Of a stretch of 64,000 nt of DNA, positions 1,037 to 55,470 are shown one piece after another. The position numbers were made by a program, and so were the translations under genes. The notes beneath the pieces were generated by a model, which was not told where the DNA came from, ran no database searches, and saw nothing but the letters and a program-made list of their open reading frames with translations. How positions within the stretch are numbered: position 1 is the first letter of the stretch; each line of letters opens with the position of its first letter. The stretch spans positions 7,192,001 to 7,256,000 of the forward strand of contig CM074514.1 of the NCBI GenBank assembly GCA_037379345.1. Direction: 5' to 3'. This DNA comes from Perna viridis (lineage: Eukaryota).

Positions 1037-1119
1037 TGTAATGATGTCCAAGGGAATGGAGATTATGCAGCCAATGATACAATATTATATTCTGGACCAG
1101 GACATTTTGAACAAAATAG
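1037..1119 (+). CDS. Putative internal exon of an unknown gene (shared exon upstream of the alternative terminal-exon array)
   Basis: ctgtttttcag acceptor, open frame CNDVQGNGDYAANDTILYSGPGHFEQN(R), ends AG|gtttgt; 83 nt, leaving phase 2. Confidence 0.5.
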
Positions 1120-2550: not shown

Positions 2551-2728
2551 AAAAGATTCAATGGTGAAAGAACCATTCAGTAATCAAGAGGGTGTGGTTT
2601 TCAAGGAGGTGGTTCATGACCCCAATTATTATTATCGAGTCATGGCAGATCAGGGAAAAGCTCCACTGCATGTTAACCCAATATATCGTGTAATGTATCC
2701 AGGAGCTGTTCTGACCAATGTACGTTAA
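2551..2728 (+). CDS. Putative alternative terminal exon A (58 aa after the split codon; ...NPIYRVMYPG...)
   Basis: atttttttag acceptor, phase 2, open to TAA. Confidence 0.55.
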
Positions 2729-4438
2729 GCCATTGCATGCATTAAAAATTTCATTTATTTACAACTTTTCAAAATTATCCATAGACTAACCTTGCTGAGG
2801 AGAGAAAATGGAATCATTCATACTCAGTATGTGGACTGCAGTATTTAACACCCAAGTGGTTGCCCAAGGATTTGTTGATAATTGATCTTCAGCTTTTGGG
2901 TGACTGGATGTAAACCATTTTATTTACATGATGTGCATGGTGTGTCTATGGTTAAATTTGCTTCATTGTATGGTTTCACGGTCACTTATTTATAAAGGGC
3001 AACAGGACATTTTTCATTGTATATTTATAGCTTCACTTGCACTTTAATTAGTCAGTGTTGTTTGTTTTTGCTCAGCTAAGTCATAGTAAATTTTCACAGC
3101 TTTTAAGCATGACTATTTGCCAACTGCTAATTACCAACTTGATCTTTGAATTCAAAAATAATGTTTTCTCAAATTAAGGAAATCATGGTGTTTTTTTTTC
3201 TTTTCTAATATTCTTTGTGCATTATCCAGTATATATTTGAAATGAATTGAATTATGCTTGATATGTGCGTACAAAGGCAGTTGTTATGATATTTTTCCAC
3301 AGTTTCATAATATCCTGAAAATGTTTACTAAAAATGTTTTGAATATAATTTGATAAGCATATGGTTATTGAATCAGCTGCATCGTTAGTGTAATTAATTT
3401 TCAAATTGATTTCAACTCTCAGATTCTTACAGTTTTTCAGTCATTACCAAACTAAAACTAATGACATTAGATAAAAACTTTTATCAGCTCACTCAGATTT
3501 TGTTCCCTATAATTTCTCTTTATTTGAGACAGCATGAGTTTAAGCTGGTTTTATTGTTTTGGACTAATTTGAGATTTTTGAGTGAACAAATGAAACAAAA
3601 CTTTCTGGTTCAGCAGAAATATAGAATAATATATCACTGAAAAAAAAACAGCCTTGAATAGTTTTGTTTTATATTGTGTTTGTTTTCAATGTAAGTTATG
3701 CTACTTGATAAAGTAATTTATACCCCAGAACCTGGTATGAAATAGAGTAAGTAACCAGGCTACAAAAATTAATCTGTTTCCTAATTTTTCACATTTGATG
3801 TACAGTTTATTGGAATAAATTATGGGAAGATATAATTTAAGTTTACAGTTCTTGAGTAAGGTTTTTGAAACATTATATTATTTTATTACTATAAATAAAA
3901 AAACTATAACCATATAATGTGCTAGAATTTCTTTACAACAAACAGTGGCATAGCCAGGTCCAAATCAATGTGGAAGCCTTTCATGGCAAGTAAAAGTGTG
4001 GGAGCAATTTATATTAGTTTGTTTCTATTACAAACATGTTGATGTCTTGCTTCTTGAAATACATTCTAGCTACATGTACTCCAATGACAAAAAATCCAAA
4101 TAAAATGATGTTTTGTAGGAAACTACATAATTCACATTTAATATGAACAATTTAACAAAAAAAGTGATATTTATAGGGTTTTAAGGTGTTTTTTTTGCAC
4201 TGTATATAGAAACCTCGCACTACTAAGCTATCTCTGCTGTATTATCTACAATAAATAGCTCTTTATAATTTCCTGAAGTTTTAACAACTGCTACAGAATC
4301 TAGTTCACTGTTAATGCTACTAATCACTTAAGTTTCCTAAAAATTAATGCACACTGCATTTTTGCTGCCTGCAAACTTTGTTTAGTTCAGCTCTGAGCAC
4401 TGATGTGGCTACCATTATTTACGATTCTGCAATTTCAG

Positions 4439-4664
4439 GGCAGGCATTAAAAGATTCCGACTGCATGAAGATGGTTTTAACATTCGATACCGTAACCGTG
4501 CCCATTATGAACCTCATTGCGACAAACTTTATTCAGTTATGTACCCTCTTAAAGAAAATTCTGATTACACTGTTGATGAAAACAGGAATAGTCGTAGGAT
4601 TAATTTAATGTCAGATAAATATGACATTATGAAAACTGTCAACGGGGATGTTTTTAAACGATAG
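4439..4664 (+). CDS. Putative alternative terminal exon B (74 aa; AGIKRFRLHEDG...DKLYSVMYPLK...DVFKR*)
   Basis: aatttcag acceptor, phase 2, 75 codons to TAG; absent from the ORF track because no early start codon lies in this frame. Confidence 0.55.
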
Positions 4665-4796
4665 TAGCAGTTCCAGTGGACTATATTCTGTGTTAATGTA
4701 TGTCTTGAAGTTTTTGGTGGCTTTTGGTTATAATTAACAGAATAGCTTAAAATAGTTGAACCTGACTAACTTATCCTTCAACCTAAATCTTTTCAG

Positions 4797-4944
4797 AGAA
4801 GATAAAAAAAGTTTTGATATGGGCCTGAAGACTAAACCAGAAAGAAAACCAGTACTGAAAACTCCTAAGCCTTTACCAGACTCAATAAGGAATATAGATA
4901 GAGACTCAGTTTATAAAATTTTACATCCTTATGAATTTAAATAA
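4797..4944 (+). CDS. Putative alternative terminal exon C (48 aa; ...DSVYKILHPYEFK*)
   Basis: ctgactaac branch-point-like motif, tcttttcag acceptor, phase 2, open to TAA. Confidence 0.55.
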
Positions 4945-5578
4945 TAACTTTTTTATGAATGTAGCTCATTACACAACATGTCTTGTATATTGTCTTTACT
5001 TTAAGTCTTTGTCTTACTTTGGTGATCATTTTTTATTCAAAACAATAACCTACTGGAGGAAATATTTTTCAAGCATGGAAATATTTGGTGCTATGCATAA
5101 TTTATAATTACTCTGTAGAATGATATACATGTAGCTAGACAGAGTAGTTAAATATTAGGAAGCTTGACTGTTTGCCAACTTTGCTCAGTATTATTTCTAA
5201 CAGGTTTAAAAATATGTGATATTTTTAAATATTCTTTGATAGGAGTCAACTACAATGGCGTATTTTAGCGGAAAAATTTCAAAGTCTTAGTTTGATTAGG
5301 TTATGTTTTCAATTTTTCATTGGTACATTATTTAAGCATTTGTGGGATTTTTTTCTGTTATTTTGTAGTAATTTTTGTGTAGTTATATACTAGTCATATT
5401 TGTCATATTTAACCATATCAGTATTATTCTTAGGAGATTATGGTTGAATGTCTTTTTTCAGCCAGTGACACTAATACTTTAAACTTGGGTAGCATTAGTA
5501 GAACTTAGTCTAGTATGAATTATTCCCCTTCGTCCAAAGCAATGGTTTAATGGGATATCAACCTTATTTCCCTTGCAG

Positions 5579-5723
5579 ATCTGTAAACGGGGAGATGCAC
5601 AGAATTTATCATAGGAGGGCAAACAACAACCCAGAAGATAAAGTGTCTCCTTTGATTCACCCCAAGGAGCTTCTGCCTAATCGTAAACAACTACCTCCGC
5701 GAAAACCACACCTTAAAGTTTAA
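5579..5723 (+). CDS. Putative alternative terminal exon D (47 aa; SVNGEMHRIYHRR...PLIHPKELL...HLKV*)
   Basis: ttatttcccttgcag acceptor, phase 2, open to TAA. Confidence 0.5.
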
Positions 5724-6096
5724 TGAAGAATGACACTACTTTAACAATATTAATGTAACATAATGTAAATAAGTTTTAATGATATAAATATTAACGACTT
5801 CTGATGTGTTCAGCTATCTAGATGGTTACCCATAGCTGTTTTATTTGATTTCAATATTTGTTTAGTTGCAATGGTTAGAAAATTTACTGTATTAAACCAG
5901 TCTTTATTTCACTTGATTTCTCCATTTCTTCTTAGACCATAACAACATTATTGATAAAATGCAGAATTTTTTTGATATGTGAAAAAAAAACCAAATACAT
6001 AACCAATAAAATACTGCAGATTTTTTAATGTAAATTGCAACTATAGGATTCATAAACTCAATATATCATAAATGACATCAAAATTATGAATTCTAG

Positions 6097-6298
6097 GACT
6101 AACTACCATTGGTTAGGAATATCAAGGGAGCGAAAACAATATGATCACAGTCGTAATGGCCCAATAATGGCTGGTACGTGGTGTGACCTCAAGCGGGAGC
6201 TTAATGGTATAGGACAGTGTCTCCCATTGGCTGGAAAAGGACAATCAATCACCATGAGAGAATTACAACAAACTCGTTTCATAACACCTAGGTCATGA
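6097..6298 (+). CDS. Putative alternative terminal exon E (66 aa; TNYHWLGISRERK...ITPRS*)
   Basis: ttctag acceptor with a weak pyrimidine tract, phase 2, open to TGA. Confidence 0.4.
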
Positions 6299-7234
6299 TT
6301 TGGCAAGTTCTAGTATTTTGGGTTCAAAGGTCGTGTTTCATTCATGTAGCATGTATTTGTCTTCAGTTCTTGATCATTTGGTGCAAACATTCTCAATCAG
6401 TTTTGTTTTTGAAAAATTGAAAATTGTTAGTTTTGGTTCATCTTGATAATGGAAAAACAAATTTTTGATATGAATTTTTGGATAACAGTATGTAGCCAAG
6501 AAATATAAAACTTCACCATGACCTAGTTGACACGTTTCTATTGAATTCATTTTTTCTTCGTTAGATCATTATTGCAAAATATTTTTGTAATGCACAAGAA
6601 TTAGATATATATTTTTATCAGTATTGGTGGTTTTTGCTGCAATATTTGTCTGTTACACATGTATTGTTTTTGAAGTTCCACAATGTTTGTCTGTTTTTTT
6701 ATGATAGAAGTAGTATTTATTAAATCAGTATTACTGTGATACATATGCATATATATAGGCATATTATGATATGCATTTTTTTACTATTTTCCTTTGCCAG
6801 TTTGTTCACTTGTAATCATTAGATGGTTCAAGATGATCATGATATATTTTAAGCCAGTTCACCTTAGCCAATCATAGAAAAGTTTAAATTAGAAGTCAAA
6901 TAATATTCAAAAGATTCATTGAATTATCTTTTATCTTTAAGGCTGGTAATTTTGTCAATTTTTTTTCCAGTTTTATTTGCAAGAAATATGTAACATTTTA
7001 TGAAGATTTTTAGTTTTATTTGCCAAAGAAAAATAAAGAAACATGCAAATGCAAACTTTTTCTAACAAGTAAATCAAGGCTCATCTCCTGAGTGATATAT
7101 AGTGTGTTTTTGTTATTGTTATCATTTTTCTTTATACATTTGTTATCTTTTGCTCAATGTTTACTTACACCAAGAAGCATATTGTGATAATTGCTTATTA
7201 AACACCTTCCTGCAAGTCTTAATTTGATTTGATG

Positions 7235-7650
7235 TTAATCTGGTCCAACCAGTGTTGCCCACCAACTTACTCCAATGAGGTTCTAACCTGGTCCAACCAA
7301 TGTTACCCACTAATTAACCTCAATGGGCTCTAACCTGGTGCAACCAATATTACCCACCAACTTACCCAGTTGGGTTATAACCTGGTCCAACCAATGTCTC
7401 CCACCCATTAACCTGAATGGGCTCTAACCTGGTGCAACCAATGTAACCCACCATCTTACTCCAGTTGGGTTCTAACCTGGTCCAACAAATGTTATCCACT
7501 TACCTCAGTGAGGTTCTAACCTGGTCCAACCAATGTTACTCACCAACATACCCAATGGGGTTCTAATCTGGTCTAACCAATTTTACCCACCCAATTACCT
7601 CAATGGGGTTATAATATGGTCCAATCAATGTCAACACACAACTTAATCCA
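7235..7650. repeat. Tandem repeat, ~41-bp unit (ctaacctggtccaaccaatgttacccaccaacttacccaatgggtt), ~10 diverged copies; 2 more copies at ~7944-8040
   Basis: Directly visible; resembles the subterminal repeat arrays of large DNA transposons. Confidence 0.9.
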
Positions 7651-12166: not shown

Positions 12167-12589
12167 TTAGAGCGAAGAATCATTACTTTGATTGTTTCCC
12201 TCACGTAATATAGACCTTCTTTTCAATTTCCGAACATGCTTGACTATCTTGTAAATGAATGTAAAAATACACACAGAAATCACAGAAAACATCCCGAAGA
12301 TCAGCGAAAATGTAGCTATTTTCATGGCTTTAACATCGGAAAAAGAAACGTATATCAGTGTTAAACTCAGAGAAACATTTTGTGTGGCTATCTCTATTGC
12401 AATTGTCCGGGAATGGACATGTGACATGCAAGCTAGCTGGGTTCCTCCATAACTGACGACCAAACCAATGCCCGGCAACATGACGGCTAAGACTACCATC
12501 CTCCAGTCCGATTTCATCATGTCGGGATATAAGTATAGGTTTAAACTTACAATGATGAGAATAACCAGAAATCCCAGCAGTCCTCCAAG
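12167..12589 (-). CDS. SLC10-family sodium/bile acid symporter, coding exon 3
   Basis: tttacag|CTT acceptor; RTIAIEIATQN motif (SLC10 RTxxxExGxQN); TM helices; stop codon. Confidence 0.92.
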   Translation of the reverse strand, partial: LGGLLGFLVILIIVSLNLYLYPDMMKSDWRMVVLAVMLPGIGLVVSYGGTQLACMSHVHSRTIAIEIATQNVSLSLTLIYVSFSDVKAMKIATFSLIFGMFSVISVCIFTFIYKIVKHVRKLKRRSILREGNNQSNDSSL

Positions 12590-14639
12590 CTGTAAATACA
12601 ATAAGCAACCAGTTTAAATTTTCATCGTAATACCCCGTTACCTGGCTCCTACGACAAGCAATTCTGAGTTCCATATATATTGTCGTGTATATTGGGAAGG
12701 TTTGTCCCTCAAAATTAATGAAAATGAAAAACTAAAATTAACATAGATTTTTAAAAAGGTATCTAAGGAAACTTCGTATCTTTTGTGGTCACTTTACGGT
12801 CGTCCTACATTTTTTTTGTAAATAAATTCTGATCCGGTGTTATTTTTTTGTATTTTTATATTTGTTTTTGCATGTAAATAAGGAAAATACTTTTAACACC
12901 GTAAGAACAACGCACAACAAATCGTACAATCAATTGACGAAAACAAAAAACAAAAGAACCAATAAAATGGCCAAGCTCTGTCTAAAAATCAGTGTAATGG
13001 TAAGCTATGAGTTGAAAGACTGCTGCAATATTACAATGAAGGAAAGGAAAGTTTACAAGGAGAAATCAAAATTGTATTGTTAAATAAGATCCTTGGAATT
13101 ATTTACTTTAGAAAAATATACTTGTACTTATAAGTACATTTTTCCCATATGATATTTAAACATTACATAATATCCGGTATAAAAACTATGTGTAAAACAT
13201 TTAAGTAACTTTCTGAATGCTAAGTAAACATCCCGGATACCAGCTGATATCCTAAATACCCTGGATAACTTGTTACATAAAAAAACCCTATCCGAATCAT
13301 AAACAAATTGCATTGTTAACCTTTTTTACCCCACAATAATCAAGCACCATATTTGAAATAATGCCCCTAAAGGTACTCTAACAATGTAAGCGGTTGGATT
13401 TCTATTCCTACATACCACAACCACTTCCGAGCGCCATATAGACCCTTTTGTGCTAACTGTAGACTACTCGTTGAACATGCGTAGAACATGCTCAACACAC
13501 ACTTCCGCAAGGAAAATTCTTTTGTTCCACCCAAGCCCTACCACTCGGAAGTGTATACTGAGTATGCTCATTATCTTACCACAAATGTTTCTATCGCAAA
13601 CTGTTCATTCCGGCGTTCTTTGCAATCGGCAGAATTATAGTAAAACATTTAAAACATTGTACAGTTTCTATACTCTAATACGGGAGAATGTGACTAAAGG
13701 GAAGAAAAACAAATAAGCTACTTGCTGAGAAAATCCAGCAATCCTGGACTTTGTAAAAGTATTTTAAATGAACTTCGCATTTGCTTTTCAGCATTTTGGA
13801 TGGGTACATTCGGTTTATAAAATTGCGGATTTTAATTTGCGAAACGAAAATATTAAATTTGATCAACGAATTGCCTTTACCAACTTTAAGTTCGTTTTGT
13901 CAAACAATACTGTATTCCATGAAATTAGTGACCTAATTCATAATAGCTGGTCACTTTGATAACTGTCTATATTACAAATGTTTTCTAGGTATTTAACAAC
14001 AATTTAGGATTTGTATCGCTTGATTTCCGATGGGTTAAACTTCTCTTATATAAATAAAAGACTAAAAATATTTTAAAACACATGTTTAGCTTTTTCATAT
14101 TTACGGTGGTTTTCAACATGCTCGATGCTAGAGGTAAGGATGGCATCAGTCAGTAAGTAGCTTGAAAGACAACCTCAAGCACTACTGGAGTACTTCAAGG
14201 AAACCCTTCCAGATACTTGAATGTCTAATCATGATGGAGTGATAAAATATCATGATAAAATATCTGCAGATAAACTTTGACATTATTTTTTTCCAGTGAA
14301 AAGAATTTCTATAAGGATACTAAAGGATGTTCGATTCTTATAAATCTACGGATGTTTAAGTTGATAATGCAGATATACAGATAATATGTCTAGGATTTTT
14401 AATCAAATAAAATCAAAATGAAGATATGTCCCTTTATTTTGACTGGAATAATTTGAATTGAGAAGTGTGGACCGATCCTTATTAATGAAGTCATTATAAT
14501 CAAGGAAACCAAGATTTTAGCGAAAATAAAGAGAATGTGATCCAAGGACAAAGACCAGACATGGAAAAAATAACCAAAATAATACGCACACTCAAAGTAA
14601 CAAATGTAAATAAGCAACTCGAATTCTACTAAAGAACTG

Positions 14640-15320
14640 AGAGTATGGGCAAGGTGCATCGGTAGGGTAAGCGTCTTTGCTTTTCTAGAAACACCGCCGA
14701 GTTGCTAATAAAAGTCAAGTCCAAGGTAGCCGAAAGAGGAAAGGAAAGTTATGATACGTTGAACAAGTCAGTTTTCATGATGCAGCAGGATAAACCGTAA
14801 CGATCAACGAGTTCATGATGACGAACATAAAAATTCTGTTATGATGACTTCAATCTTATAGCAGCAAGCCCTGTTCCTAATTGTAAGAAGTCTAGCGCGG
14901 TACAAATAGTTTGCATAGTAACGACAAGCTCTGGCATAACGTATGAGTTGTGATATGAAAACTCCATACGCAGGTGCTGAAGGGATGTTGCCACAGATGA
15001 AAGGAAAGTTGACAATACGCAATGAAAAGTCATCACGTTTGTCGTATAGTTCGGTCAACAATTTTTCTTAATTATCGATCTTTAAATGTACGTCAAGATA
15101 TGAGGCTGACTTCACAGTGTCTGTAGTATTCTTTATCTCAAGTTCTTTGAGGAAGATGCGATGTATAAAATCTACGTAACTATAATTGTTTAACGGTAAT
15201 ACGTCATTTATATGGCGGAAACTGAGATTTATCTAGCTACATGATGTTCCTTCTTATGGATCAGATCAGCTATAAAGTTAGCCTCATAATAGTAAAGGAA
15301 TAAGTCAGCAATTAGAGAAA
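14640..15320 (-). mobile_element. Penelope-like retroelement, decayed RT fragment, in SLC10 intron
   Basis: IADLFLYYYE, FRHIND (from FRYIDD), SASYLD and LYDKRDDF...SAPAYGVFISQLIRYARAC motifs. Confidence 0.85.
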
Positions 15321-15617
15321 ATAAACTATCATGTCCAGATAAGAAATAAACAATCAAATTAAAGTATTTAGTCAAAAAATGTCATATCTTGAAATATATC
15401 TTCTTATCTCGTTTATTATGGTAGATCTACTATAACATATTAATATTACAAAAAAACCCTTTACAGGTTACATACAATACCATTGAAACAAATTACAACG
15501 AATCATAAGTTATTTTATGACAAATAAAATAGTTTGCAAACATGTATGTATTTGACCAACATGAACCACATGATTTTTTGTAAAATGGCACTAGATTCAC
15601 GGAAGAGAATATTTTAC

Positions 15618-15822
15618 CTTTACGATGATGCCAGCAACCTTTGGCAGTTTACGTGAAATGATCATTCCAATAGCAACAGGGACGATAGTAATAACCAGAC
15701 CAATAATTATCTTGATGTATGGTATCTTGAGATCATCAGTTACGAAACCTCTAGTGTATATCCAAAGATTCAATGGCATCATACCGATAGCCAGGGCTGT
15801 TGCTAGCCAAGTCATACAGATG
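15618..15822 (-). CDS. SLC10-family symporter, coding exon 2
   Basis: ttttag|C acceptor and AAG|gtaaaa donor; SICMT...ALAIGMMPLNLWIYT...IPY motif. Confidence 0.92.
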
Positions 15823-16258
15823 CTAAAAAACATATGAACAGTAATGTTATAAGTGTCCTTCGCTATAAAATACAGTGAGGCAAGGAAATCGTCAATCCCT
15901 CCGGCTCAACCTGATTAACTGAAACCGCCTGACGAGTCTCAATCAAAGTTCTTAAATGTTCCTTTACACTGCTTTTCCGTGAACGTTTAATAATTTGTCT
16001 GATAATGGCTGATATAGTTGCGACTGATGTTTCATTTTCAAAATAACATACCGTTCATATAGTACTTATGTAGTGTAAACAATGTTTCTTTTTTTTTAAA
16101 TTCTTTTGCAACTATAATTGTTATTGACAAGTGCATTGTATATTTTGAGATTTGAACTGACTTATACTTTTTGCATCTTGAGCTATAGTCATTACTTCCA
16201 AATGCAAGTCGAATTAGCGATCAGGGTTGATCATACAGTGCATTCATTTCAAAATTAC

Positions 16259-16650
16259 CTCAATACCACATCTCCATCGCACCAAAAGGTAATCAGATTC
16301 GATAAAGTACCACCTGGGCATGTTGTCAACAGTAAAGCTCCCAGTGCATCATAAGATGATAAACGCAGGACGTGTACCAAACTAAAAGTGAGCAAAGGAT
16401 ACACCACGAACTGGATTAGCATTCCGAGTAAAATGGGGACGGGTTTCTTTATTTGGTCTAATATCGTTCTTGGTTCTATAGTACATCCGAGGGAGAGCAT
16501 TATAATAAAAATGACAGCTATAAGCAAGATTTCCCATATTTTTTTTATTATAGCTTTTACCGGATCTGGCAATATTACATCATCGAATGTATCACTTGTG
16601 TTGGCAAAGGAATACGAAACTTTCAGTTCACTCTCTGTTGTTTGGTCCAT
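16259..16650 (-). CDS. SLC10-family symporter, coding exon 1 (spliced CDS 1020 nt, 339 aa)
   Basis: MLSLGC, QFVVYPL and CPGGTLSNLITFWCDGDVVLS motifs; AG|gtaatt donor; phases join in frame; an acceptor at 16663-16664 implies an upstream 5' UTR exon. Confidence 0.92.
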
Positions 16651-17017
16651 TAAGGCTTAGATCTGAAAAAAATGCCATTGATGCCGAGAGTTAGTCGAGA
16701 CTTACACTGGTAGAATTGAATGGTTGTGCACGAAAAAGGAAGACAAGCTTTAACTGGATTGAGAACAAAATCCGTTTTTCATTTAAGCTGATGTTTATAT
16801 CTTCACACTAAGATTAGATGATAAAGAAAGATAAGGAATGCCACTGTAATATTTCCTCTGTCTATTTGTCTAGCATCTTATTCAGAATGCACCACCACGT
16901 GATTGAGGTTTTTAGACAAGAAAGTACAACGGCTATTCCTTATTGAATTAATTTTTGTATGTCCAAACATCTACCAGGTGTATATAACTATCGGGATTGA
17001 TGTCTAAAATAAAAGTA

Positions 17018-23442: not shown

Positions 23443-24914
23443 TGGTCCTTATTGAAAGTATCCAATGACGATCATCTCAGCTTGGCTTCAGCCATTGAGA
23501 GTGTTTTGTTGAAACTTAGTAAAATTGTACACTTGGTCGAATGAAAGAGGATAACAGAAAACGACGAATCATGGATGAATTACACGATAAAAGTGATAAA
23601 ACATAGAAAGACGACAAAACGTTTTTTACAGGCACGTGGGAGATCGTTCCATGGAAAGATATAGCAAACGCATGGCCGACACTTTATGCAGAGAAACCGA
23701 TGTTCCGACCGACAGACCCAACAACCTATCGGACATAAAAACGTTCGAAGATCTGTAGGATAACATTATGGTGTAATCCTCATAGTTTGGAAACAAATTT
23801 TGCCTTGTTGTCAACAATTCTTCGAGACAAAATCAATACCTATACATCACAACAACAGACGACTCGGTCGGACATTTCGGACATTTCGATGAAATCGGAA
23901 GCATCAATGGATTCTTTGGCTGTGGATATTTTTGCGAGACATGTCTAAAACCTTACAAAAAGATAATTTCCAAATTTATTTAATACAAAAGAATATCAGA
24001 CTTACATTGGCCTGTATCCGGATCCGGCATTTGACAGATGCGATTTCATGGAAACGGGAGACAGAAAAGACCTCCAATAGTACGACACCAAACAAGACGA
24101 GATTTTCGATTTCTTACGACAAATGTACGAATATTGCGCCTCGGACGTAGACATCCTACGTAGAGGTTACTCAACAGCTGTTGATGGAAGTCACTTCTAA
24201 AATTGGATCGACGGCCGTGGATCCTTTCGATTATGTGATCATTGCCTTGGTGTGTCAGGGAATCTATCGCCATTTGTTTCTTGAAGAGACGTACGGAACG
24301 AAGGTACTGGATCTTGAAACGGAAAAGTGGATCAATTGCCAAACGATATTCGATGGCGAATGAAACGTTCTGCCGCCCAACAAAGTATGGACACAATCGT
24401 CGTCGGTGGACGTTGGAAGGTAAAAGGTCGGGAAACGTGTTTTCGAGTCCCACAGGCATCGTCCCTTCTGAAGGTTACAAAACCCGTGATAATATCACCA
24501 TATAGAAAATCAAGCAGAGAAGAACCTACGAATATGTCACGCCCTGAACGCCGGGGAACACCGTTGTCCCCGGAACTAAGTACAGGCTAGACGGATTCGA
24601 TGAGGCCACCAAGACGGTCTACGAGTTCCTGGGTGTGTTTTTTTTTAACTTATGAATATGTATATAATATATGATAAACTTATATATATAATTTGATCCG
24701 ATGGAGCAGTGTAGCGGACTGAGTCGTCACACTCTGAGACGTTTGTATAATATTGAATTGTTGTGACGTGTATCGTTAATTTGATCCTCTATCCTACATG
24801 ATAACACCTAGATGAGCTGTCCCGTACAACCATACATCGTGTACAAAGTTACAGCTCTAGGTTAGTCTTACGAGGAGGAATGACCCGTCTGACGAAAGCT
24901 ATATTTTTTATATA

Positions 24915-25017
24915 GCCTAGCTGGCCGAGTGGTCTAGGGCTTTGGACTTAGTGCAGGCGGTGTTGCCATAGATGTCATAGTGATAGTTCCGCGGAGGGAA
25001 CGACCAAAAATTTGCTT
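24915..25017 (+). mobile_element. tRNA-derived SINE head fragment
   Basis: A-box-like tggccgagtggt; interrupts the polB region. Confidence 0.4.
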
Positions 25018-26715
25018 CACAACCCTAGAGACAGTTTCTATGGAGGACGCACAAATGCCATCAAGCTTTTTTACGAGGTCAAAGAACCCGGAGAAACCAT
25101 AGAATATTACAACGATACGAGGTGAGCTTCTTTTTATAAATGCATCCAGTTGTAATTCAATGTAAAAAATGTGTCATCTTTGTTTGAACAAGTATGCGAA
25201 ATATCCGATAGGACACCCAACCATCATAACGTCTGATTTCAAACATATATCAGAGTACAATGGGTATAGCAAAATTGAGTATCAAGGCACCTCGTCAACT
25301 GTATCATCACGTGCTGCCTTATTTATCGAACGAAAAATAGAAATTTTCACCCTGCATAACGTGTGCAGATAGGGAAAACGAAAGTGAATGTCGATATAGT
25401 GACAACGAAAGAATATTTACCGGGACCTGGTGTACTCCGGAAATCCAACTAGCCTGTTCAAAAGGATACGAAATCGTTAAGATTTACCAAATTCATCACT
25501 TTGAGGAATCGAGTATCTATGACAGTGTTACAAAACCAGGAGTTCTGTTCATGGAATACGTCGATATATTTTTGAGACTAAAGCAAGAGGCTTTTGGCTT
25601 TCCTTCCAAGTGTCAAACAAAAGAAAAAAATGAACTATATAGCTAACTATGCAAGAAATGAAGGGATACAACTTGATTTCGATTTGATTAAAAAAAAATC
25701 CGGATCTGTGTAGTCTGGCTAGGATCTGCTTAAATAGTTTTTGGGAAATCTGGTCAACGCTTGAATATGAAAAAAGTCCTCCTTTCTATATGAACATGAA
25801 GTAGACACGTTTTTCCAATTACTTTCAGACTCTGGAAAGGATGTTCAAGATTTCCATATCGTCAGTAATGAAATCATATAGTTGGAATATTTCGATGATT
25901 CGGCTTTTTTACCTTTTGACTTTAAAACTAACGTATTCATTGCCAGCTTTACGACTCTCGAAATAGCTCAAAGGAATTATTTTATGTAGATACCGATTCA
26001 ATAATATTTCACGATGTAAACAAACAAATTACACAGCGTCTACCGGTGGGCAATCATCTTAGAGAAATAACTAGCGAGATATCCTAAAGGAGAAGGACAT
26101 ATAACGACAGTCGTCTGGCCCTAAATCTTACGCTTACAGAACGGCTTCAGGTAAAGAAGTATGTAAGGTAAGAAGGTTTACCTTAAATTGGACAAACTGT
26201 AACAAAAAACAAAAAAAAAGATAAGAGTAAGGTAAGAGGGTTTACCCTTAATTGGAAAAATTGTAACAAAAACGCCTGAGAAACTATCAATCCACGAAAA
26301 ATATCAAGAATCTCTAGAAAAAAGAAAACTATGCGACAAGATAGAGGAAAGGGAATTTAAAATGGTTTACACGAAGGTTGTTAGACGACCTTACATCTGT
26401 GCCTTTTGGATATTGACATAAAAACTAGAAACCCTCAAAAATATACATTTATTAATACAGCATATAATTTGATCAATTTTGTCTATTTTGAAAAAGCATT
26501 CCGATGTATGTAACCAAAAAAAATCTTATTGTCAAGCGTTCAATTACAATTACCTGAACAAAAAGATAATCTTTGTTTTTTTATTTATTTCAAAAACAAA
26601 CAAATTGAAATAGAAAAATTAAAATTTTATCCAACGAATTTGTTTCTTCCTTCTTTTTATGGGTTCTTTGTCTAGTATACCGGGTAGTTCTCCTTTCTTC
26701 TTTCGATCTTTCTAA

Positions 26716-26988
26716 TCAACAGTTTCTTTTTTTCTGACTTTTATTAGTAGTTTTGTCGCCTAATCGTATAACAGTGGGTTTGTATGGTTTTAATGCTTTG
26801 GCATATGTCTGTTTATTTGGAAACAAACCCTTGCATATATTTAGAGCAATTTCTGAAATAACTTCCATCTGTTCTTTCGAAAGTGTCGATAGCTTTGCAT
26901 TGTTGTTTGATACAAACGTTTTAAGAGTAATGCATATGTCCTCATCTGACGAATCATTCTGTAAATTTGTGATAAATTCATATTGCAC
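26716..26988 (-). pseudogene. Conserved small Polinton virion/core protein
   Basis: VISEIALNICKG...KALKPYK...IRLG...KK pattern of the ORF that usually follows the ATPase in alpha-type Polintons. Confidence 0.6.
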
Positions 26989-26997
26989 AAGCGTCTT

Positions 26998-27658
26998 TTA
27001 AATGGGTTTGTATACAATACAAGTATCTCCCGGAAAAATTTCCTTTCTTAGCTTGTATTGACGTTCCTCTTGTCGTTTTCATGGAGAAATTTTCGCAAGT
27101 AAATATCCATATTTGTAATGAGTGGCCTTCGTTTAAGTCTCCATAAAGTATTGCGTCTGTCTAGGTAGGGTCTGAGATGCAAACGTCACTATCTGTCTTG
27201 TGTCTCGCGGATTGCGAAATAATACAAAAATGGCAATGTTTAAAGAAATACTTTTCGAGTATTTGTCGACTGGATAGAGTGATTGTGAAATCACTAAGCA
27301 TGAAATATTCCTTTCATGTGATGTGACTGAAAAGATGCAACAGTTCTTCCGACTGTACTGTTTTACTTATTAAATCATCCAGTATTAATAAAGAATGTTT
27401 CTTGTGTTCTGAAAACTCCTCCAATCTGTCTTTGTGAAAGATGGGATTTTTAAAAATGTTTCATTTCATCAAACATTTTTTTTTATATTCTGGATACGCA
27501 TACAGAATTTCACAAGGAGCCACAGTAATCATTTTCGAGGCATTCACGATGAGTCTCTTGGTAAACATAGATTTTCCCGATTTTGTTGGTACAATAACAG
27601 CAATGGTCGTTGGAGATGAAAATGGCGATACGGTTTTCTCTGAATCACCCTCCATCAT
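26998..27658 (-). pseudogene. Packaging ATPase (FtsK/A32-like), Polinton A
   Basis: Degenerate Walker A VPTKSGKS, Walker B LLILDDL, SHERN, FRNPRD, C-terminal LRKEIFPGD..IVY. Confidence 0.88.
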
Positions 27659-27689
27659 AATATGTGTTTCATTAATTAAATGGTTATTT

Positions 27690-28180
27690 TACTTCTTACA
27701 TGCCGTTTTATGTCTTCCCCAAAGCATTTAAGTATAACATAATGAAAGAGTCATTGATATGCAGGTTGTTGCCAAACAGTTCATATACGACATTCAAAGG
27801 CACGAAAAAACAAATTCGCATCAGTATGAAAAACAAACACATATTGTCCACATATATCAGATGTTGATGACTGTATTTTTTTTATATACGCAAATATTTT
27901 TTTACTATTTCCCGTAATAATTTTTTGTATTGTTTCTTCGTAAAATAAGGCGGTATCTCCAAGACTGTCGTGGTACTCTGAGGACGTTTAATAATAATAA
28001 AGACAAAATGCAAATTAAATGTTCTCCTGGGTTGGGTATTGAGTCTGTGTTAACAATATATATTTGTGGATAACGTCTTTGAATAACTTTAGGTAATGTG
28101 TTTATAGCACATATTTCAACAAAAATATTTCTCAAACATTGGAACGAGGAAATAGCATTCTTCAGTTGAAAATTTTGATG
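27690..28180 (-). pseudogene. Adenain-like cysteine protease, Polinton A
   Basis: YIVNTDSIPNPGEH and IQSSTSDICGQY motifs. Confidence 0.85.
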
Positions 28181-28189
28181 TCTCTTGCT

Positions 28190-29430
28190 TCATTGCATGT
28201 CAGAATGGCTCGGGATTGGTAATAACACATTTTATAACATCGGTTGTTGCTTGATTGAATCTCATTTCCATCCTCGTTTAACCATGCTTGGCGAAATCTT
28301 CGAAATCTTCCTCGAAATCAGAAGGAATCAGTAAAAATGCAAGAAAAGTGAAACCTTTGCCAAAATCACTCCTTGATATGGTAAGACCTGCATCTTTATT
28401 CCATTTTTCGCATATAAAGTCTGACGTATGCCGCTGTATAATTTCTGGATGCTCCGAAATCCAATTTTTGAGGAGATCCATAAATATCTACACCATTTAC
28501 TTTCAAACTAACTTCGGATAAATTAAAATGTTGAAAATTAATTGGCAGTGTAATTTCCATTTGCTGTTTTCTGTGAAATTAATCCAAACAGGACTTTCGA
28601 CGGTAGAGATTTGGGATACATAGAATCCCAGTAGAATTCAATAGAGCCCTTGGGTATAATGTTCTGTGTAACATTGCTTCTATCTATAACGTATATTGCT
28701 GGGGTTTCTTTTATCTGTTGGCTATGATTCAGAATGACCTCTGGATCGAGTTTTATTCTCGCCGTTTTGAGTGCTACATCTAAAATTCTCACTTTACAAC
28801 TAGGATTGCTTTCCCCAAACATTAATACGAAACTGGATCTAAAAAGTTATATGAAAATATCTACTCCATTGATAAGATATTTGTCGAGATTCAAAACATC
28901 TGCCATGAGATTTCTTTCTAACTCCAATGTTCTAGATTCTTTTGTAAATTCGTATCGGTTAACGAATCCTGAATTTGCAGATACTGAATTCATCTTTCGT
29001 GAACAAGTGACTTTGCAATTGAGATTTCTGTTCGTCCGAACCAGCACATAACATAACCTGTAAATTTGCCTTCCATGAAAATTGTATGCGTTGGCAGAGA
29101 CCAGTTTATTGTTCATGTACACATAAACCTGAGAAATCTTGGCCTGTAAATGTAAATTTACTATTCCAACCTTCTCTTTTACAGCCAAATTACTCCCATC
29201 ACCTTTCACAATCTGTAGCTTCACATATAGGCGACTTTTCCACAAATCAATATATCGTTCCCAGTACAAGAAACTACAATTTCTGTAGGCGATGATTTAT
29301 TTATAATCGAAAATATAGGACGCTCTTTTGTATAAATTTCTTTATTTACTGCCACTTGATTTGGAGCAAACATCGAAAGTTCCATCGGTTGTCCAATTCG
29401 TTTGTTATCCTCATTTAAAAAAGCCATCAC
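28190..29430 (-). pseudogene. Double jelly-roll major capsid protein, Polinton A
   Basis: ELSMF.P.Q, YIDLWKSRLYVKLQI, LINGVDI, LPSKVLFGL...ANGNYTAN, ISRSDFGKGFT motifs across frameshifted ORFs. Confidence 0.88.
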
Positions 29431-29439
29431 TTTTTCTTT

Positions 29440-29800
29440 TTCTTACTCGGTGGCTGATTCTAAATGTTATAGTAGTAATCTGGGTTTAGAGTTCTCTTGT
29501 TAAGCTTCCTTACTATTTTTCTAATAGTTTGTTCTTCGATGTTGAACCTTTCCCAAACCGCTTTTTTATGGATTTTGTCGCTTTTTTCTTTTTTATACGT
29601 TTTTCACACGAGGTTCATTTTTTCCCTTTCCTCCTTATATTCTGATTTTGTCCTTTCTTCTGCAGCAGCCACTGGAGTCACTAAATCTGTATGCAGTTCA
29701 TCATTTTCTTTAATAACATGTGAATTTACGGAAATAAGATAGGATCCTCGGTAACGTCCATTGAGACCACGTCCAATTTGATGCCGTTCATGTTTTTTTC
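29440..29800 (-). pseudogene. Small basic Polinton core-like protein
   Basis: QIGRG...LVTPVAAAEERTKSE followed by a Lys/Arg-rich tail. Confidence 0.45.
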
Positions 29801-30125
29801 TTACATACTGATAAAGACTGTATATTTTTTGCTTTAATTGGTATATAATATGGGTAGTTTTATACTATGTTATTTTGTTCTATATCACTTAGATACACTC
29901 TCCTTAACAAAGACCTCGCACCCTATAAATGTATCCTGGCATATTTCTAAACATACAAATAGTTCACTTTTTGTCATCCCAATCTGTTGTGGTAAATTCC
30001 GTAACAGATACTACCTAATATCCTTCAAATTGTATTTCCTTCTTTTTAATCCTAAAGTCGTCAGGAGTATTATTTAGATAAAAATTATTTCCGTCATCCG
30101 AAGACCAAACCATTCTGAAACTCAT
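29800..30125 (-). pseudogene. Minor capsid (penton) protein, Polinton A
   Basis: MSFRMVWSSDDGNNFYLNNTPDDFRIK...FEGY*VVSVTE then ELFVCLEICQDTFIG. Confidence 0.7.
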
Positions 30126-30149
30126 GTTGTATAATAATGAACATATTAA

Positions 30150-31200
30150 TTGATGTACTCATTATTTTATCAATTTCACCGAATTCTTTGGTACTTACAA
30201 ATTATTTTTTTTTCTGGCCAACCCGTCCATTTTACTGATACTTCCGGTTGTTTTCTATGCAGATGTCTTCTTTTTATAACCTTTTCCACTTTGTATACAA
30301 CGTCATCTGATGTCATGTAACTCATATCTGTAAAATGTTTTTTTGACCAAGAATCTTTCTGTTGATATATGTCTTGATTATCTCTTTTAAATATTTTTCT
30401 TAAAGTATTCCATAGTCCATTTTTCTTGAAATCCCATTTCAAAATTGTGAAATGTGAAATTCTAACAAAATCTTCAATCTTATACTTAAATACAGATTTG
30501 TGTTTCTTTGTTTTGTTGTTGTTTTTTTTCGTATTCAATGACAACTGTTGATTTTTCCTATTCTTCGATCTCTTTTCCCTGACTAAATATTGAATATAAC
30601 GAATTTTGTCTTCATTCTTTTTGTGACGGAAGCCGGTGCGATGTTACCAAATGATTGATGTGCTGTATAGTTATAAATATGAAATGAATCCTGCAGAACA
30701 CTCCAGCGTTATTCGTATAGAATATGTGTATTCTTGATCATATATATTTTCGTTGCTGATTTAAATTCTCCTTCAAATCTGATGCTTTGCGGCTTCCTGT
30801 TATGGTTTTTGAATATGTTTTTAAATGCTTTGGCCACCATTTCACTCTTTTTATTTTTTAATGGGCACACAGTTTCATATCTCGAAAATATGTCAATTAA
30901 ATCTAATAAGAATTTCACTGCGTCGTTGTGTTGTGAAACATTTTCCATCGATGCAAGATCTCCGTCCCACATAGAGTCGTTACCTTCAACTATTACTCTG
31001 CTCCTTTTAAATTTCTTTCTTCTTGATTTGTGTAAACCATAAGTTTTTTTTATATAAAATGTTTAACAAAGCAACGACCAATATTAAACTTTCCTTAACT
31101 ATCTGGTATAATTTGTCAGGACCAGCAAATGTTCCATGATTGCAGGAATTGGTCCGTATTTCTGATAAATATTTTTCTTTGTTTCTTAGATACTCCAGCC
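30150..31200 (-). pseudogene. Retroviral-like integrase with C-terminal chromodomain, Polinton A
   Basis: FAGPDKLY, WDGDLASM...IDIFSRY...PLKNK...KP.SIR..GEF; VYKVEKVIKRR...VKWTGWP. Confidence 0.9.
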
Positions 31201-41650: not shown

Positions 41651-42110
41651 GCCTTTCGGTATTTCAGACGTTATTCAACATAACCTTCGAATCATCGATT
41701 GTTGCAATTTTGATTGTCTCCTCTAAATTTGAATTAGGCTTAATGTGAAATAAGCAGGATTGACGAAAAGTAATTGTTCGTATTTTTACAAGATTCTACC
41801 AAGTCATAGCATTTTTAATCAGTGTGTAGCTCTTAGCTGCGTTGATGAATAAAAAAACTGGAGTGAGAACCACGAACACTACCATCCAACTTTCAAGTTC
41901 AGGTATATTAATTTATTACAAAATTTGTCAACATGTTTTCTTGCTTGTCAATATTTATAAGATTTAAATTTAATGTCCTGTATATGAATGATTATATTTC
42001 TTACATTGTGTTAGTACGGTTATGGTTGTTAGAAATGCTTGCTCATACAAACTGTCATCCTCCCAAATCGGGGTTTTGAATCCACCTTCGCTCCCTCAAA
42101 CGTCATCAGT

Positions 42111-42407
42111 GAAGATGTCTTCCAGAAAAAGGTTGAAGAGCAGAGTCAGGAAGCTCTGAAATGGAAGGACTTACCCATCGGGGTAATCTGCAAGATTATG
42201 GAGGTGATAGAGGTGGATGGAAAGTTTGGTAAGTCAAAGATCCTCACCTTGAAGGGCAGACAAGGAGAGAGCACCAAAGTATGGGCTTGCCCTACGCTCA
42301 ACAAAGAAAAAGATCCCTTGCAAGGAGCATACGTTCAGAGCACGGGATTCAAAGTGAGCAAAAAGTCCAAACAGGAATACCTCTCCTACGACCTGGTGAG
42401 GAAGTAA
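42111..42407 (+). CDS. Polinton B small accessory protein (beta-rich, possibly OB-fold)
   Basis: LKWKDLPIG...KFGKSKILTL...KVWA; probable ATG at 42115 is out of frame. Confidence 0.5.
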   Translation, partial: EDVFQKKVEEQSQEALKWKDLPIGVICKIMEVIEVDGKFGKSKILTLKGRQGESTKVWACPTLNKEKDPLQGAYVQSTGFKVSKKSKQEYLSYDLVRK

Positions 42408-42570
42408 AAAATATAACCGAGGGCTAGGGGTATGAGGTTCGAAATTTCCCAATCCAAATTACTGGATGGGGAAATTTTGTTTTTGGTCACATGAGACTTT
42501 GATCTGGAGGATTCTGGAATGAGCGGGGAGCGAGGCGTAGTCGAGCGAGGCGCGTTTGGAAGAATCCTCC

Positions 42571-43071
42571 CTATGGCGCATGCGTAGTAAGGTCTTCACT
42601 AAAAGTGGTGGTGGAAGGTTTTCGCAGCTGCTGCTTTTCGTCGTAGTAGAAGCCAAGACATTTCAAAACCCCTGCAAATTCATATTCACCGTTATCATCA
42701 TCCTCCAGGGCTTTGCTCACTGCATCTTTGATCTTGGATTGGTAGGATCTGACGATACTCACGGTATCTTCATACTTTTTACGCTTTTTGCGGATGCGCT
42801 TGACTAGCATCGTCAATACCACCATCGCAATGGAATTCATGACAGCTAGTGAGCTTAACGAAATGCATGCCACAGCGCCAATCCCCGTGGCGGCGGTGCT
42901 GAGGGTGTCGGTGGTGCAAATGGCGTTGAGTACGGCACATGCACCCAGAGCAAAAGACACCGCTTTATCCACTCGTTCATAGGTTTTTGCTAGTTGGACA
43001 TACTTATGCATTTTGGATTTGAGCTCTCGCTCGATCGATTCAATCCTAGCTTCCCTATAGGATTGCTTCAC
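42571..43071 (-). CDS. Polinton B two-TM membrane protein
   Basis: YR..RI..IE.EL, hydrophobic hairpin, KKRKKY, VSKALED...EF; pattern conserved in beta-type Polintons. Confidence 0.7.
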   Translation of the reverse strand: MKQSYREARIESIERELKSKMHKYVQLAKTYERVDKAVSFALGACAVLNAICTTDTLSTAATGIGAVACISLSSLAVMNSIAMVVLTMLVKRIRKKRKKYEDTVSIVRSYQSKIKDAVSKALEDDDNGEYEFAGVLKCLGFYYDEKQQLRKPSTTTFSEDLTTHAP

Positions 43072-43089
43072 AGAGTCAAGGTTTCACGC

Positions 43090-43410
43090 AGCACACTTTT
43101 CCACCCTTCTTGAGGTACTATCCAGAACCCACAGCCTTTTGGATGGCTGCACTATCCAAACCGCTCAATGTACCCACGCCAAAAGCAGGTAGCTCGGTTT
43201 TGGCTAGCACGGGTAGCGCAGCAGAGGCGAGACCTGCGAGCATGGGGAGGAATCCACCTTCTTTCTGCATGTTATGCCTCACCTGCTTCGGACTTGGAGG
43301 GTTGGGTTGAAGCGAGTCAAGATCTGGCTATCGTTCCCAGAGACGATGAAGGAAAACCCATGCTTGGGTTCGGTATTGGTGATGATTTTCAGCAAAAGTG
43401 AAGCGTCCAT
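43090..43410 (-). pseudogene. Deletion chimera: penton N-terminus joined to an amphipathic core protein
   Basis: MDASLLLKIITNTEPKHGFSFIVSGNDSQILTRFNP then QVRHNMQKEGGFLPMLAGLASAALPVLAK...GSG*YLKKGG. Confidence 0.7.
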
Positions 43411-43424
43411 TTATCTAACCTTAC

Positions 43425-44638
43425 TCAGAAGACGACGCTCATCTTCTGGCCATCTAATTCGAATTGGAGGATTCGATCGGAGATGACCAGGGCGAAGGCT
43501 TGGGTATTGGCAGGGATCTGGATATCCACCGTCGACTCTTTCAACCGCTCGGACTGATGGCTCATGTCAATGACGAATAGGGGATAAAGATCGATGAAGT
43601 CAGAGGGATTGATACCGCCATTGCTCAGCAGACTTTCCATGCTTTAGAATTTTTTGCGGAATTCGGCAGCCTCCTTGTAGACCCTGGCGATGCCGGGGTC
43701 GTTGAGGTGGTCGATCTGCGGAGAGTCGGTAGCTGATGCAACGAAAGAGATACATGGCACCGTTATGGACTAGCGATACAAGATCGACCTCGCCATAAAC
43801 GGTACCATCATTCTTATGAAGTCGGCCTTCATCAAGAGATAGCTTTCGGCGGGATTGAGTCATATACAACGAGTACATGCTAACTGCATTAAAAATTCAT
43901 GTCATATATTAATATTAGGGGGGGGGGGGTGTTACAGATGCAGCCTGTCCTGTGGTATATGTTTGTTTGTTTGTTTGTTGAACTCCGAGCAGCAATATTT
44001 CAGCTATATTCAGACGATGAACATGAAATTGATGATAAAATGAACATGAAATGATGATGAAATGAAAAAGGGATGGGACACAAGGATAATGGGGTCGACA
44101 AATTTTGAGTGCCACTGGAAATAGGGAGGGGTGGGTAGGGTCGGGCAATTTAGCCTCCTGTGGCAGAAGCTATGGTTCCTACTCCGGGAGAATACCACAG
44201 TAGGGTTCTTTAACGTGCGAGGAATGTGGCATCTTTCCCAACACGGTGCACCACTATGGTTTGCGGTCAGGTTTTCCGTATTATAGCCTGACAACCCCAG
44301 CATGTAACACGCCAGGGGTACCCCATTTAACCACCTGGGGCACACATCCCAGTTGCTCTGTGGGCAAAGCGCCCTAACCCCGGCTAGGGTTCTGAGCACT
44401 ATTTATTCGCCTTTATTTACGACAAGCTTAGCGCTGCTGTAGGCCTATTCTTTTAACACCCGGACCTGCACGGGGCTGGATGGAGGAAGAGATCCTGGGT
44501 CTCGATATTGATGCGTATCACTGCGCCGGCATTATTTAGCTGCGCCCCGGCTTGAGGTTCGTATTCATGAACCTGATACTCCTGGAGACTTTCATCAAAA
44601 GTCAGTCCTTCGGTGATAGTGAGCATATCGGCCATCAT
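43425..44638 (-). pseudogene. Major capsid protein, Polinton B (deleted; interrupted by SINE)
   Basis: DESLQEYQVHEYEPQAGAQLN...IRINIETQDLFLHP|AESYL..EGRL.K.DGT and C-terminal LYPLFVID.SHQSERLK...QAFALVISDR. Confidence 0.88.
43960..44474 (-). mobile_element. SINE-like element, copy 2, inserted in the MCP gene
   Basis: Matches 11091-11592 plus ~20 extra internal bp; TSD ggcgggat (43848-43855) / ggctggat (44474-44481). Confidence 0.9.
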
Positions 44639-44649
44639 ATATTTATCTA

Positions 44650-44985
44650 TAGCGCTGGACGAAGTCGTGGATGGTGTGATGCCCCCGCCCGAGATAAGAT
44701 TATTGAGACGGGTCTGCTGCTGCGAAGTCCTCTTGGACTTGGTGGATGGTGCTGGAGGAGTCTTCTTGCGGGTCACTCGACGGACGTTGTGGTCCACCGC
44801 CTTGGTCGCACCTTTCTCAACGCCTTTCAGGGCTGCATTGGAGGCGGCGCTCACAGCTTTGGTACTCAACGTCTTGGCGGTGGAGGAGGTAAGCACCCGC
44901 CCCGCAAGATTGGTGATGGTATCGAAAGGCCTCGCCCGCCAACGGCATACCTTCGGCGATAACCGTGATTCACTACTAAAGGCAT
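44650..44985 (-). pseudogene. Amphipathic basic core protein, Polinton B
   Basis: MPLVVNHGYRRRYAVGGRGL[fs]DTITNLAGRVLTSSTAKTLSTKAVSAASNAALKG. Confidence 0.6.
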
Positions 44986-44996
44986 CGTAAGTTTAT

Positions 44997-45830: not shown

Positions 45831-45839
45831 TTTACGCCC

Positions 45840-46177
45840 GACCAGAGGGTGGTGAATTTGGGTATGTATATAGTCTCCTTGTGGATACGGTGCAAAGCTT
45901 TGCCGCGGGCAATCTTAGCACCACACCGGTAGCATGCCTCAGGGAAAAGCTTCGAGTGCCTCTTACATTTATCACTGCCCGATATGGATGGGTACATGCA
46001 CTGATGGCCGCGGACGGTCTTAATGCAGCACTGGGGTCCTGGCGGTTGATTAGGTTTATGGCGGGAGTGGGAATTATAGGTTCTTCCTTCGAAATCCTGC
46101 TCATCGAGGCGCTGAGCGTACCTTTTGACACCGCATCTACTGCAGCCATACCCCAGGATTTCGTAGTGAATAAGCAC
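45840..46177 (-). pseudogene. Cys/His zinc-finger-like accessory ORF
   Basis: CSRC, CCIKTVRGHQC-x9-CKRH and CYRC clusters. Confidence 0.45.
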
Positions 46178-46189
46178 ACGCTCCTACTG

Positions 46190-53379: not shown

Positions 53380-53477
53380 GTGGGGATAGCGATCCTTGAT
53401 GGAGAGAAGGTCGCGGATATCGTCTTTCGAAAACCCTTTCTCCAACGCCCGCCGCAGTAGCTGGTAGATGGGCTGCT

Positions 53478-54494: not shown

Positions 54495-54499
54495 TCCCA

Positions 54500-55392: not shown

Positions 55393-55470
55393 TTATCTAG
55401 GGAGGGATGGGCATCTACACCCGTCAGAGTCTACTAAATGTAGGAGAAGAGAGATGGGCATCCGCACCAG

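Follow-up and report, generated by a model that had tools for sequence, protein, structure and literature searches.

Alternative C-terminal exons with a shared motif and a predicted exon-to-exon RNA duplex in a small gene of Perna viridis

Control of splicing by RNA pairing is described from insects, chelicerates, and mammals in the literature searched; molluscs are not among them. In the exon 6 cluster of Dscam1, a balancer pairing (Ubs6.1-Dbs6.40), kept across long evolutionary distances, represses proximal and promotes distal exons (PMC8791459). Its upstream arm spans an intron-exon boundary and masks the acceptor, its downstream arm is intronic, and it acts together with a docking site-selector system. 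RNA pairing also governs the 3' variable regions of Drosophila PGRP-LC, CG42235, and Pip (PMC6191721), where tandemly duplicated 3' cassettes, each a whole domain, are chosen by means of intronic docking and selector elements. Tandem exon duplication-derived substitutions form a known event class (PMC8373072), with ancient homologous exons used as alternatives, some of them C-terminal and with the likeness shrunk to a motif. Here, a small bivalve gene with one constant head and five alternative C-terminal exons, designated A to E, is described from the forward strand of Perna viridis (GCA_037379345.1, contig CM074514.1, positions 7,192,001 to 7,256,000). This whole stretch of 64 kb is called the window; it is AT-rich animal DNA and covers the 3' half of the gene, with exon 1 upstream of it.

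The array resembles the Dscam1 balancer in that its first variable exon has a conserved, predicted long-range pairing partner towards the 3' end of the cluster. It differs in having both arms inside coding parts of alternative exons, in the 3'-terminal position of the cluster, and in that the pairing is a prediction. With PGRP-LC, CG42235, and Pip it shares tandemly duplicated 3' cassettes that yield alternative C-termini, but the tails here are only 45-75 residues long, of low confidence in structure prediction, and have a 9-residue motif in common; the string "mollus" is absent from the available text of PMC6191721. The array is also like the exons of PMC8373072, which in its available part is a human catalogue without this gene, and adds a frame-shifting cassette (A) and a non-homologous exon (E). 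Precedents exist for every single ingredient; for the combination, and for a molluscan 3' array with a duplex between two coding exons, none was found in the literature, nor was a paper naming this gene when 12 gene or protein identifiers or the topic were searched. In the overall reading, to which we give a probability of roughly 55%, duplicated tails sit on a constant head, a duplex between exons A and D biases splicing to E, and the products are doublet-microtubule proteins.

Exons A to D (2551-5723) and exon E are alternative C-terminal exons of one gene. Splice joints were taken from assembled contigs. The four runs behind them, each from a different study, are on record as no more than probable RNA; the GT..AG joints in these contigs, six among the exons described here, show splicing. 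All features of the gene are on the forward strand. The constant exon 2 (1037..1119) is homologous to Mytilus exon 2, ends with ...YSGPGHFEQN-R, and has the phase-2 donor 1119|1120 common to all alternative exons. Exon 1, encoding the conserved N-terminal helix, lies before the window and is known from homologs and from a 30-nt loose contig end, which before position 1034 reads into it in all four runs. The acceptors of A to E (2551, 4439, 4797, 5579, and 6097) are all AG and all of phase 2, and their frames continue the exon ending at 1119. Exon A (2551..2719) is a cassette of 169 nt, entered in phase 2 and left in phase 0, with the peptides HDPN..YR and NPIYRVMYP; it shares 80% identity with a Mytilus californianus protein that is uncharacterised. 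The joint 1119->2551 and the joint 2719->4797 from the A donor to the C acceptor were each found in three runs. A mini exon of 42 nt in phase 2 (2785..2826) was joined to 1119 in a single run, its donor at 2826 being predicted only; it matches a 14-codon optional exon of Mytilus models in length and position. The coding parts to the stop codon are 4439..4664 for exon B, 4797..4944 for exon C (joint 1119->4797 in two runs), 5579..5723 for exon D (1119->5579 in three), and 6097..6301 for exon E (1119->6097 in all four). Exon D has the conserved end LPPRKPHLKV; exon E, with the most distal acceptor, has the tail YDHSRNGP. For the B acceptor (4439) and for the donor of the mini exon, the contigs showed no joint, from which absence is not implied, as rare forms drop out of contigs. 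Exon B was found in all three of the related loci described below, and B-type isoforms are annotated in Mytilus, oysters, scallops, clams, and Aplysia. The 3' untranslated region (UTR) behind E is 6302..7222, with ATTAAA at 7197; contigs from 6094 end at 7210-7222 in three runs and at 7052 in the remaining one. A candidate poly(A) signal AATAAA lies behind D (6005..6010), and contigs of two runs end at 5990, which is a weak hint.

The exons are used as alternatives, as donor 1119 is joined to A, C, D, and E, and separate isoforms are annotated in other molluscs. The original prediction, made by a model from the letters of the window, spoke of cassette exons; this is right for A alone, while B to E each carry a stop codon and are alternative last exons. 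Because exon A has 169 nt, whichever exon follows is translated in a shifted frame and immediately meets a stop; from the C acceptor, two residues are added before the stop. With the stop codons of B to E, a mussel- or oyster-type protein therefore carries at most one motif. It consists of a 60-residue head and one tail, with products of about 105-145 aa. The original prediction had overlooked both this mutual exclusion by stop codons and frame shift and the A-D complementarity described below. In Mytilus, the tails annotated after A are codon-compatible with B (4/4), C (7/7), D (12/12), E (12/12), and the mini exon (14/14) read one base out of frame. The E-type tails of two other Mytilus species fit at 11 of 12 codons, and one tested tail matched none. 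Oyster tails behind A fit C (4/4), B (2/2), and D (2/2), these matches being short and weak.

Related loci were found as genomic contigs in a metagenome scan, in which three of 73 pattern matches were confirmed (L001, L002, and L003). By their peptides all look clam-like, L001 and L002 apparently representing one species and L003 another, so "three species" in the comparisons below means the window and these two sets. The order exon 2-A-B-C-D-E is present in L001 and L003, and L002 carries A to E; exon A has its own stop in the clam-like loci. Exon order, phase, motif, and the 20-nt complementarity described below are kept in the three species. Sequence searches returned the head with A- to E-type tails from mussels, oysters, scallops, clams, and snails, and the A-type tail also from a chiton and the annelid Owenia. 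Cnidarians and a sponge have the same head with unrelated C-termini. The cnidarian relatives (P0134-P0156) consist of the head, a long helix, and a conserved C-terminus LRxQEKxLRDxxLxMG, which is also in P0106 and P0153. They have no Pfam family at the cut-off and form a family in its own right. In the ESM Atlas, three clusters without a name were found (two mostly Mollusca, one Rotifera) and nothing named for the head. A homology of exon E to the cnidarian C-terminus was considered and rejected, as a single sequence shared by the two alignments had raised its score; with that sequence taken out of the exon E alignment, the homology was weak (E-value 0.013, with 1 of 80 shuffles as high), and there was none against cnidarians alone.

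The peptides IYRVMYP (2681), LYSVMYP (4527), and VYKILHP (4909), reported in the original prediction, are present on the forward strand and are the only matches of [ILV]Yx[VI][ML][YH]P in six frames of the window. In full they read NPIYRVMYP in exon A (2675..2701), DKLYSVMYP in exon B (4521-4547), and DSVYKILHP in exon C (4903-4929). Two weaker copies had been proposed for exon D: LIHP stands, in register within the degenerate DKVSPLIHP (5637-5663), where S replaces a residue that is Y or F in most homologs, and MHRIYH is not the motif. The strict pattern is real in the window but too narrow for homologs, as it matched 14/24, 0/20, 5/8, 0/4, and 0/16 distinct homologous entries of A, B, C, D, and E, respectively. 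The conserved core is rather [DN]-x-hydrophobic-[YF]-x-hydrophobic-hydrophobic-[YHQ]-P. With a pattern relaxed post hoc, the counts rose to 21/24, 17/20, 8/8, and 4/4, and stayed at 0/16 for E; one A entry is a truncated form, and two B entries are anchor mis-picks. Because this pattern was written after seeing the data, a matrix was trained on A alone (14 A-type 9-mers) and compared with 558 control peptides. In the same register it recognized B in 7 of 7 cases (p<=0.0025), C in 6 of 7 (p<=0.0065, the other 0.061), D in 4 of 5 (p<=0.02, the D of the window being at 0.12), and E in none of 12. Exons B and C of the window score above all control peptides, and its exon D is equalled or beaten by 55. 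Of the two outcomes that would have spoken against the original prediction, a motif no more enriched than in shuffled sequences and a motif not conserved in homologous exons, neither was observed.

Profiles of the tails, built from the cassettes only, were compared in hhalign with 60 column shuffles per pair. The surroundings of the motif, first described as dissimilar, are not wholly so: A and B align over 32 columns (probability 85%, E 6e-6), and C and D over 18 columns (probability 46%, E 2e-4), in both cases beyond the motif, and duplication is therefore likely. The real score was reached by no shuffle for A-B, A-C, and C-D and by one shuffle each for A-D, B-C, and B-D, always in the motif register. 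Exon E is not detectably homologous, as shuffles scored as high in 43 of 60 cases against A and in 7 of 60 against C. Profiles, shuffles, and matrix together support the idea that A to D are ancient paralogs with one retained motif; E is not a detectable paralog of them. Tandem duplication of one 3' exon and later divergence is the simplest history of A to D, and a likely one. Alternatively, two or more exon lineages of separate origin, A/B and C/D, might have converged on the same binding site. The remaining pairs among A to D do align through the motif alone, over 10-15 columns (E 0.005-0.11). Convergence is nevertheless improbable, given that acceptor phase, tandem position, and register are all alike, that homology within A-B and within C-D is clear, and that the A-like tail of the Owenia protein also aligns with B through the motif.

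A repeat search found no DNA-level repeat linking the exons. It revealed that 2576-2614 in exon A is complementary to 5689-5727 at the end of exon D, 3 kb apart. The predicted duplex arms are 2594..2613, coding for VVFKEVV, and 5690..5709, coding for LPPRKPH. This is the strongest long-range pair of the window region (-38.7 kcal/mol), and none of 40 dinucleotide shuffles was as low. The arms are each other's best partner in all three species (window, L001, and L003), with 18/20, 20/20, and 20/20 core positions paired in a fixed register. The five variable core positions all keep a pair, by wobble, or gain one relative to the window; one G-C to A-U change lies just outside the core, at a position mismatched in L003. 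Between the window and L003, the D arm is the strongest match at the DNA level, and between the window and L001 it is the A arm. When both peptides were fixed and codons resampled by the usage of 1199 local codons, none of 5000 recodings per species paired as strongly, and under a cruder null with longer windows 1, 10, and 0 of 3000 did. Among codons with 4- or 6-fold degeneracy, 6 of 9 in the arms and 5 of 45 elsewhere do not vary between the three species (Fisher p=0.001, a test not fully independent because the arms were first picked in the window). In four of five further molluscs (Mytilus, two oysters, and Gigantopelta) the peptides allow 18-19 of 20 pairs. That the complementarity is a relic or accident, such as the remnant of an early inverted duplication, and persists only for the sake of the two peptides, could be argued from this compatibility of the peptides alone, and from the three DNA sequences at hand with no two-sided covariation in the core. 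The recodings, which never paired as strongly with the peptides fixed, and the silent sites, far more conserved in the arms than elsewhere, make such an origin very improbable. The arms would very probably pair in the pre-mRNA.

Further pairs were seen in the clam-like loci. The A arm of L003 has a second partner in the intron behind A (L003:1893-1917, -31.2 kcal/mol), a potential competitor of the D arm. In a second long-range pair, an element within the intron, 140-160 nt ahead of the D acceptor, is matched with the 3' UTR of E (L001:4494-4523 with L001:5361-5388, -36.7 kcal/mol; L003:4171-4195 with L003:5932-5958, -30.0 kcal/mol). It has 17-nt perfect cores and left arms similar to each other, and it is not among the top pairs of the window. 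A candidate pattern like that of a docking site and selectors was seen in L003, where 685-710, in the intron after exon 2, may pair with 4778-4804 before E (-32.2 kcal/mol) and with 4060-4082 before D (-24.5 kcal/mol). The D-side stretch of this pattern is conserved at L001:4424-4455 (83% over 35 nt, E 0.007). Inverted repeats in the window flanking B (4293-4322/4662-4691) and over the mini-exon acceptor were rejected, as 23/40 and 28/40 shuffles, respectively, matched them.

The A-D stem would close a loop of 2.0-3.3 kb with the rest of A and the B, C, and D acceptors, the E acceptor lying 216-478 nt further. In the mechanism toward which we lean, pairing would hide the start of exon A, loop out the acceptors of B to D, and favour E, and without the stem one of A to D would be chosen; the stem would in this way offset the advantage of early acceptors. 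The main rival is that the duplex acts after splicing or at 3'-end formation, on translation, stability, or the choice of poly(A) site behind D. Transcripts joined from A to C that run on through D as 3' UTR would hold both arms; the A-to-C joint was present in three runs, and unspliced contigs extend over 4797-5606 and from 5577 to 5990 or 6123. The A arm leaves the acceptor of A uncovered, and AATAAA lies 300 nt behind the D arm. We consider this unlikely, as the duplex persists in the clam-like loci, where A has its own stop, and its geometry matches the Dscam1 balancer. Translating ribosomes would, moreover, unwind an arm within coding sequence.

For the head, five family profiles were run against 177,635 sequences of the Protein Data Bank (PDB), and all returned chain 1o of structure 8SNB as the first match, with E from 4.9e-4 to 3.3e-7. 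The next PDB match was at E of at least 0.13 (0.24 for the best profile). A cnidarian profile also returned this chain first (E 1.9e-7). The alignment joins the very N-terminus of both proteins along the helix YH-x-EALR-[KR]-QR-x-I-[DE]-R and degrades after about residue 30; the rest of the chain is charged and helical as in the cnidarian relatives, with no match to tails A to E. Structure 8SNB is the sea urchin sperm doublet microtubule (PMC10973386, PMC12551952, PMC13066092), and the available parts of PMC11779644 and PMC10994176 held nothing further on chain 1o. The chain has 142 aa, is present as four chains, and is labelled "Meiosis-specific nuclear structural protein 1" (MNS1). An identity of the gene with MNS1 was rejected: the products have about 105-145 aa and no Pfam match, and the label on the chain and on a Porites record appears to be a database name only. 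The TPH coiled-coil domain of MNS1/TPH proteins has about 500 aa. No Pfam family was found at the cut-off for exons or isoforms in sets of 3, 21, and 11 proteins. Matches of a tail profile to uS17 (E 0.05) and of the head to PDCD5 and SLMAP (E at least 0.13) were regarded as chance. AlphaFold2 predicts a confident helix at residues 3-29. The remainder is modelled at low confidence and includes a short helix at the motif, as expected of a protein folding on a scaffold. In Foldseek and VIA-align the mollusc model had no match and the cnidarian model matched generic helices only; 8SNB_1o was unlisted there, and this search excludes nothing.

By this one short homology, an axonemal role is likely, with the N-terminal helix anchoring the protein on axonemal doublet microtubules like the related sea urchin chain. 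The original prediction proposed a family of adaptor or decoy isoforms, here taken as cytoplasmic proteins whose motif binds one common non-ciliary partner and whose helix has another use. Such proteins would suit the tails, which are predicted with low confidence, are probably disordered, and carry a conserved motif that is short and hydrophobic; E without the motif could be a decoy, and the 8SNB match is short. No Pfam family or solved structure suggests an adaptor, however, and the only significant match of the family is a doublet-microtubule chain, N-terminus to N-terminus. As the head matches a sperm doublet chain, an axonemal role would be likelier than a generic adaptor or decoy, which we regard as rather unlikely.

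What the tails would do on an axoneme is more doubtful. By analogy, the motif may, as a short helix with a proline, dock to tubulin or to an adjacent protein of the axoneme, A to D competing for one site with different flanks and E leaving it empty; this falls somewhat short of an even chance. Tubulin-binding modules of microtubule inner proteins have been named Mn, SNYG, NWE, PYG, GFG, and ELLEn, the last a 70-residue syntax present in CFAP53, CFAP141, and TCHP (PMC10973386). The proteins of this gene are like microtubule inner proteins in being small and mostly unstructured, with short helices or loops and a conserved aromatic residue and proline. Of five published patterns, Mn, SNYG, NWE, GFG, and PYG (PMC10973386), none describes the motif. 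Among 151 family proteins, they were present in 14 (Mn), 1 (SNYG), 0 (NWE), and 1 (GFG), and [PG]YG in 20, the first 12 listed matches of the last being all GYG of Mytilus-type exon 2. The GPGx[YF] of exon 2 was likened to the sperm-tail PG-rich repeat family, and this was rejected, as it is present in only 39 of the 151 proteins and the full PGPGxY in none.

Several points weigh against the overall reading. In the tails, the similarity of A-D, B-C, and B-D is borderline (E 0.03-0.11), the motif of exon D is degenerate in the window and has N at position 8 in clams, and no such motif was seen in the examined relatives that share the head, from cnidarians, a sponge, and sea urchin. In models of Gigantopelta, A is followed in frame by C, D, or E, and the exclusivity of tails is therefore not universal. 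The duplex rests on three species, and the changes in its core are one-sided, with no compensatory change on both sides. The D tail of the Pomacea type has lost peptide compatibility (13/20 pairs), and the silent-site comparison comes to p=0.052 when every invariant residue is counted. With its start 34-43 nt into exon A, the A arm leaves the acceptor uncovered. As regards cilia, the match to 8SNB_1o comprises about 30 N-terminal residues of charged helix with a bias of 8-14 bits, and a single-sequence search gave E 0.17. A tail-only profile retrieved neither this chain (E<=10) nor any axonemal protein.

In its widest and more tentative form, the reading sees an axonemal protein family made from one gene by swapping tails with a new microtubule-docking motif under an RNA stem switch in coding exons. 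The peptides VVF[KE]EVV and LPPRKPH would be held near-antisense in mussel-like and clam-like bivalves and probably some snails, so that protein sequence would be conserved partly for RNA pairing, and splicing would provide cell-type-specific cilia; all this is tentative to the same degree. If true, the gene would be a compact (5 kb) molluscan case of long-range RNA pairing controlling alternative last exons, with both arms coding. Conserved peptides would then be shaped by RNA pairing, which advises caution in equating conservation with protein function. An uncharacterised animal protein family present in a sponge, cnidarians, an annelid, molluscs, and the sea urchin would join the cilium parts list, together with a candidate docking motif, and splicing could specialise the axonemes of gill, larvae, and sperm.

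Elsewhere in the window, GC-richer stretches with broken ORFs lie at 24000-31100, 42000-47000, and 53000-57500. By eye, these ORFs resemble fragments of the DNA polymerase, integrase, ATPase, and capsid of Polinton/Maverick-type elements; a Pfam comparison of 11 ORFs, taken from here and from close by, gave no match at E<=0.001. Exons of a sodium/bile-acid symporter (SLC10-type) are present on the reverse strand at 12170-16656 (Pfam SBF, E 7e-17 and 8e-11). A Pao/BEL-type long terminal repeat (LTR) retrotransposon on the forward strand at 47202-52652 has two long ORFs with DUF1759, reverse transcriptase, Peptidase_A17, integrase, and DUF5641. Two minisatellites accompany the gene, one in the intron before exon A (2170-2325, a 34-nt unit repeated 4.6 times) and the other just behind its 3' end (7236-7650, a 47-nt unit repeated 8.4 times).

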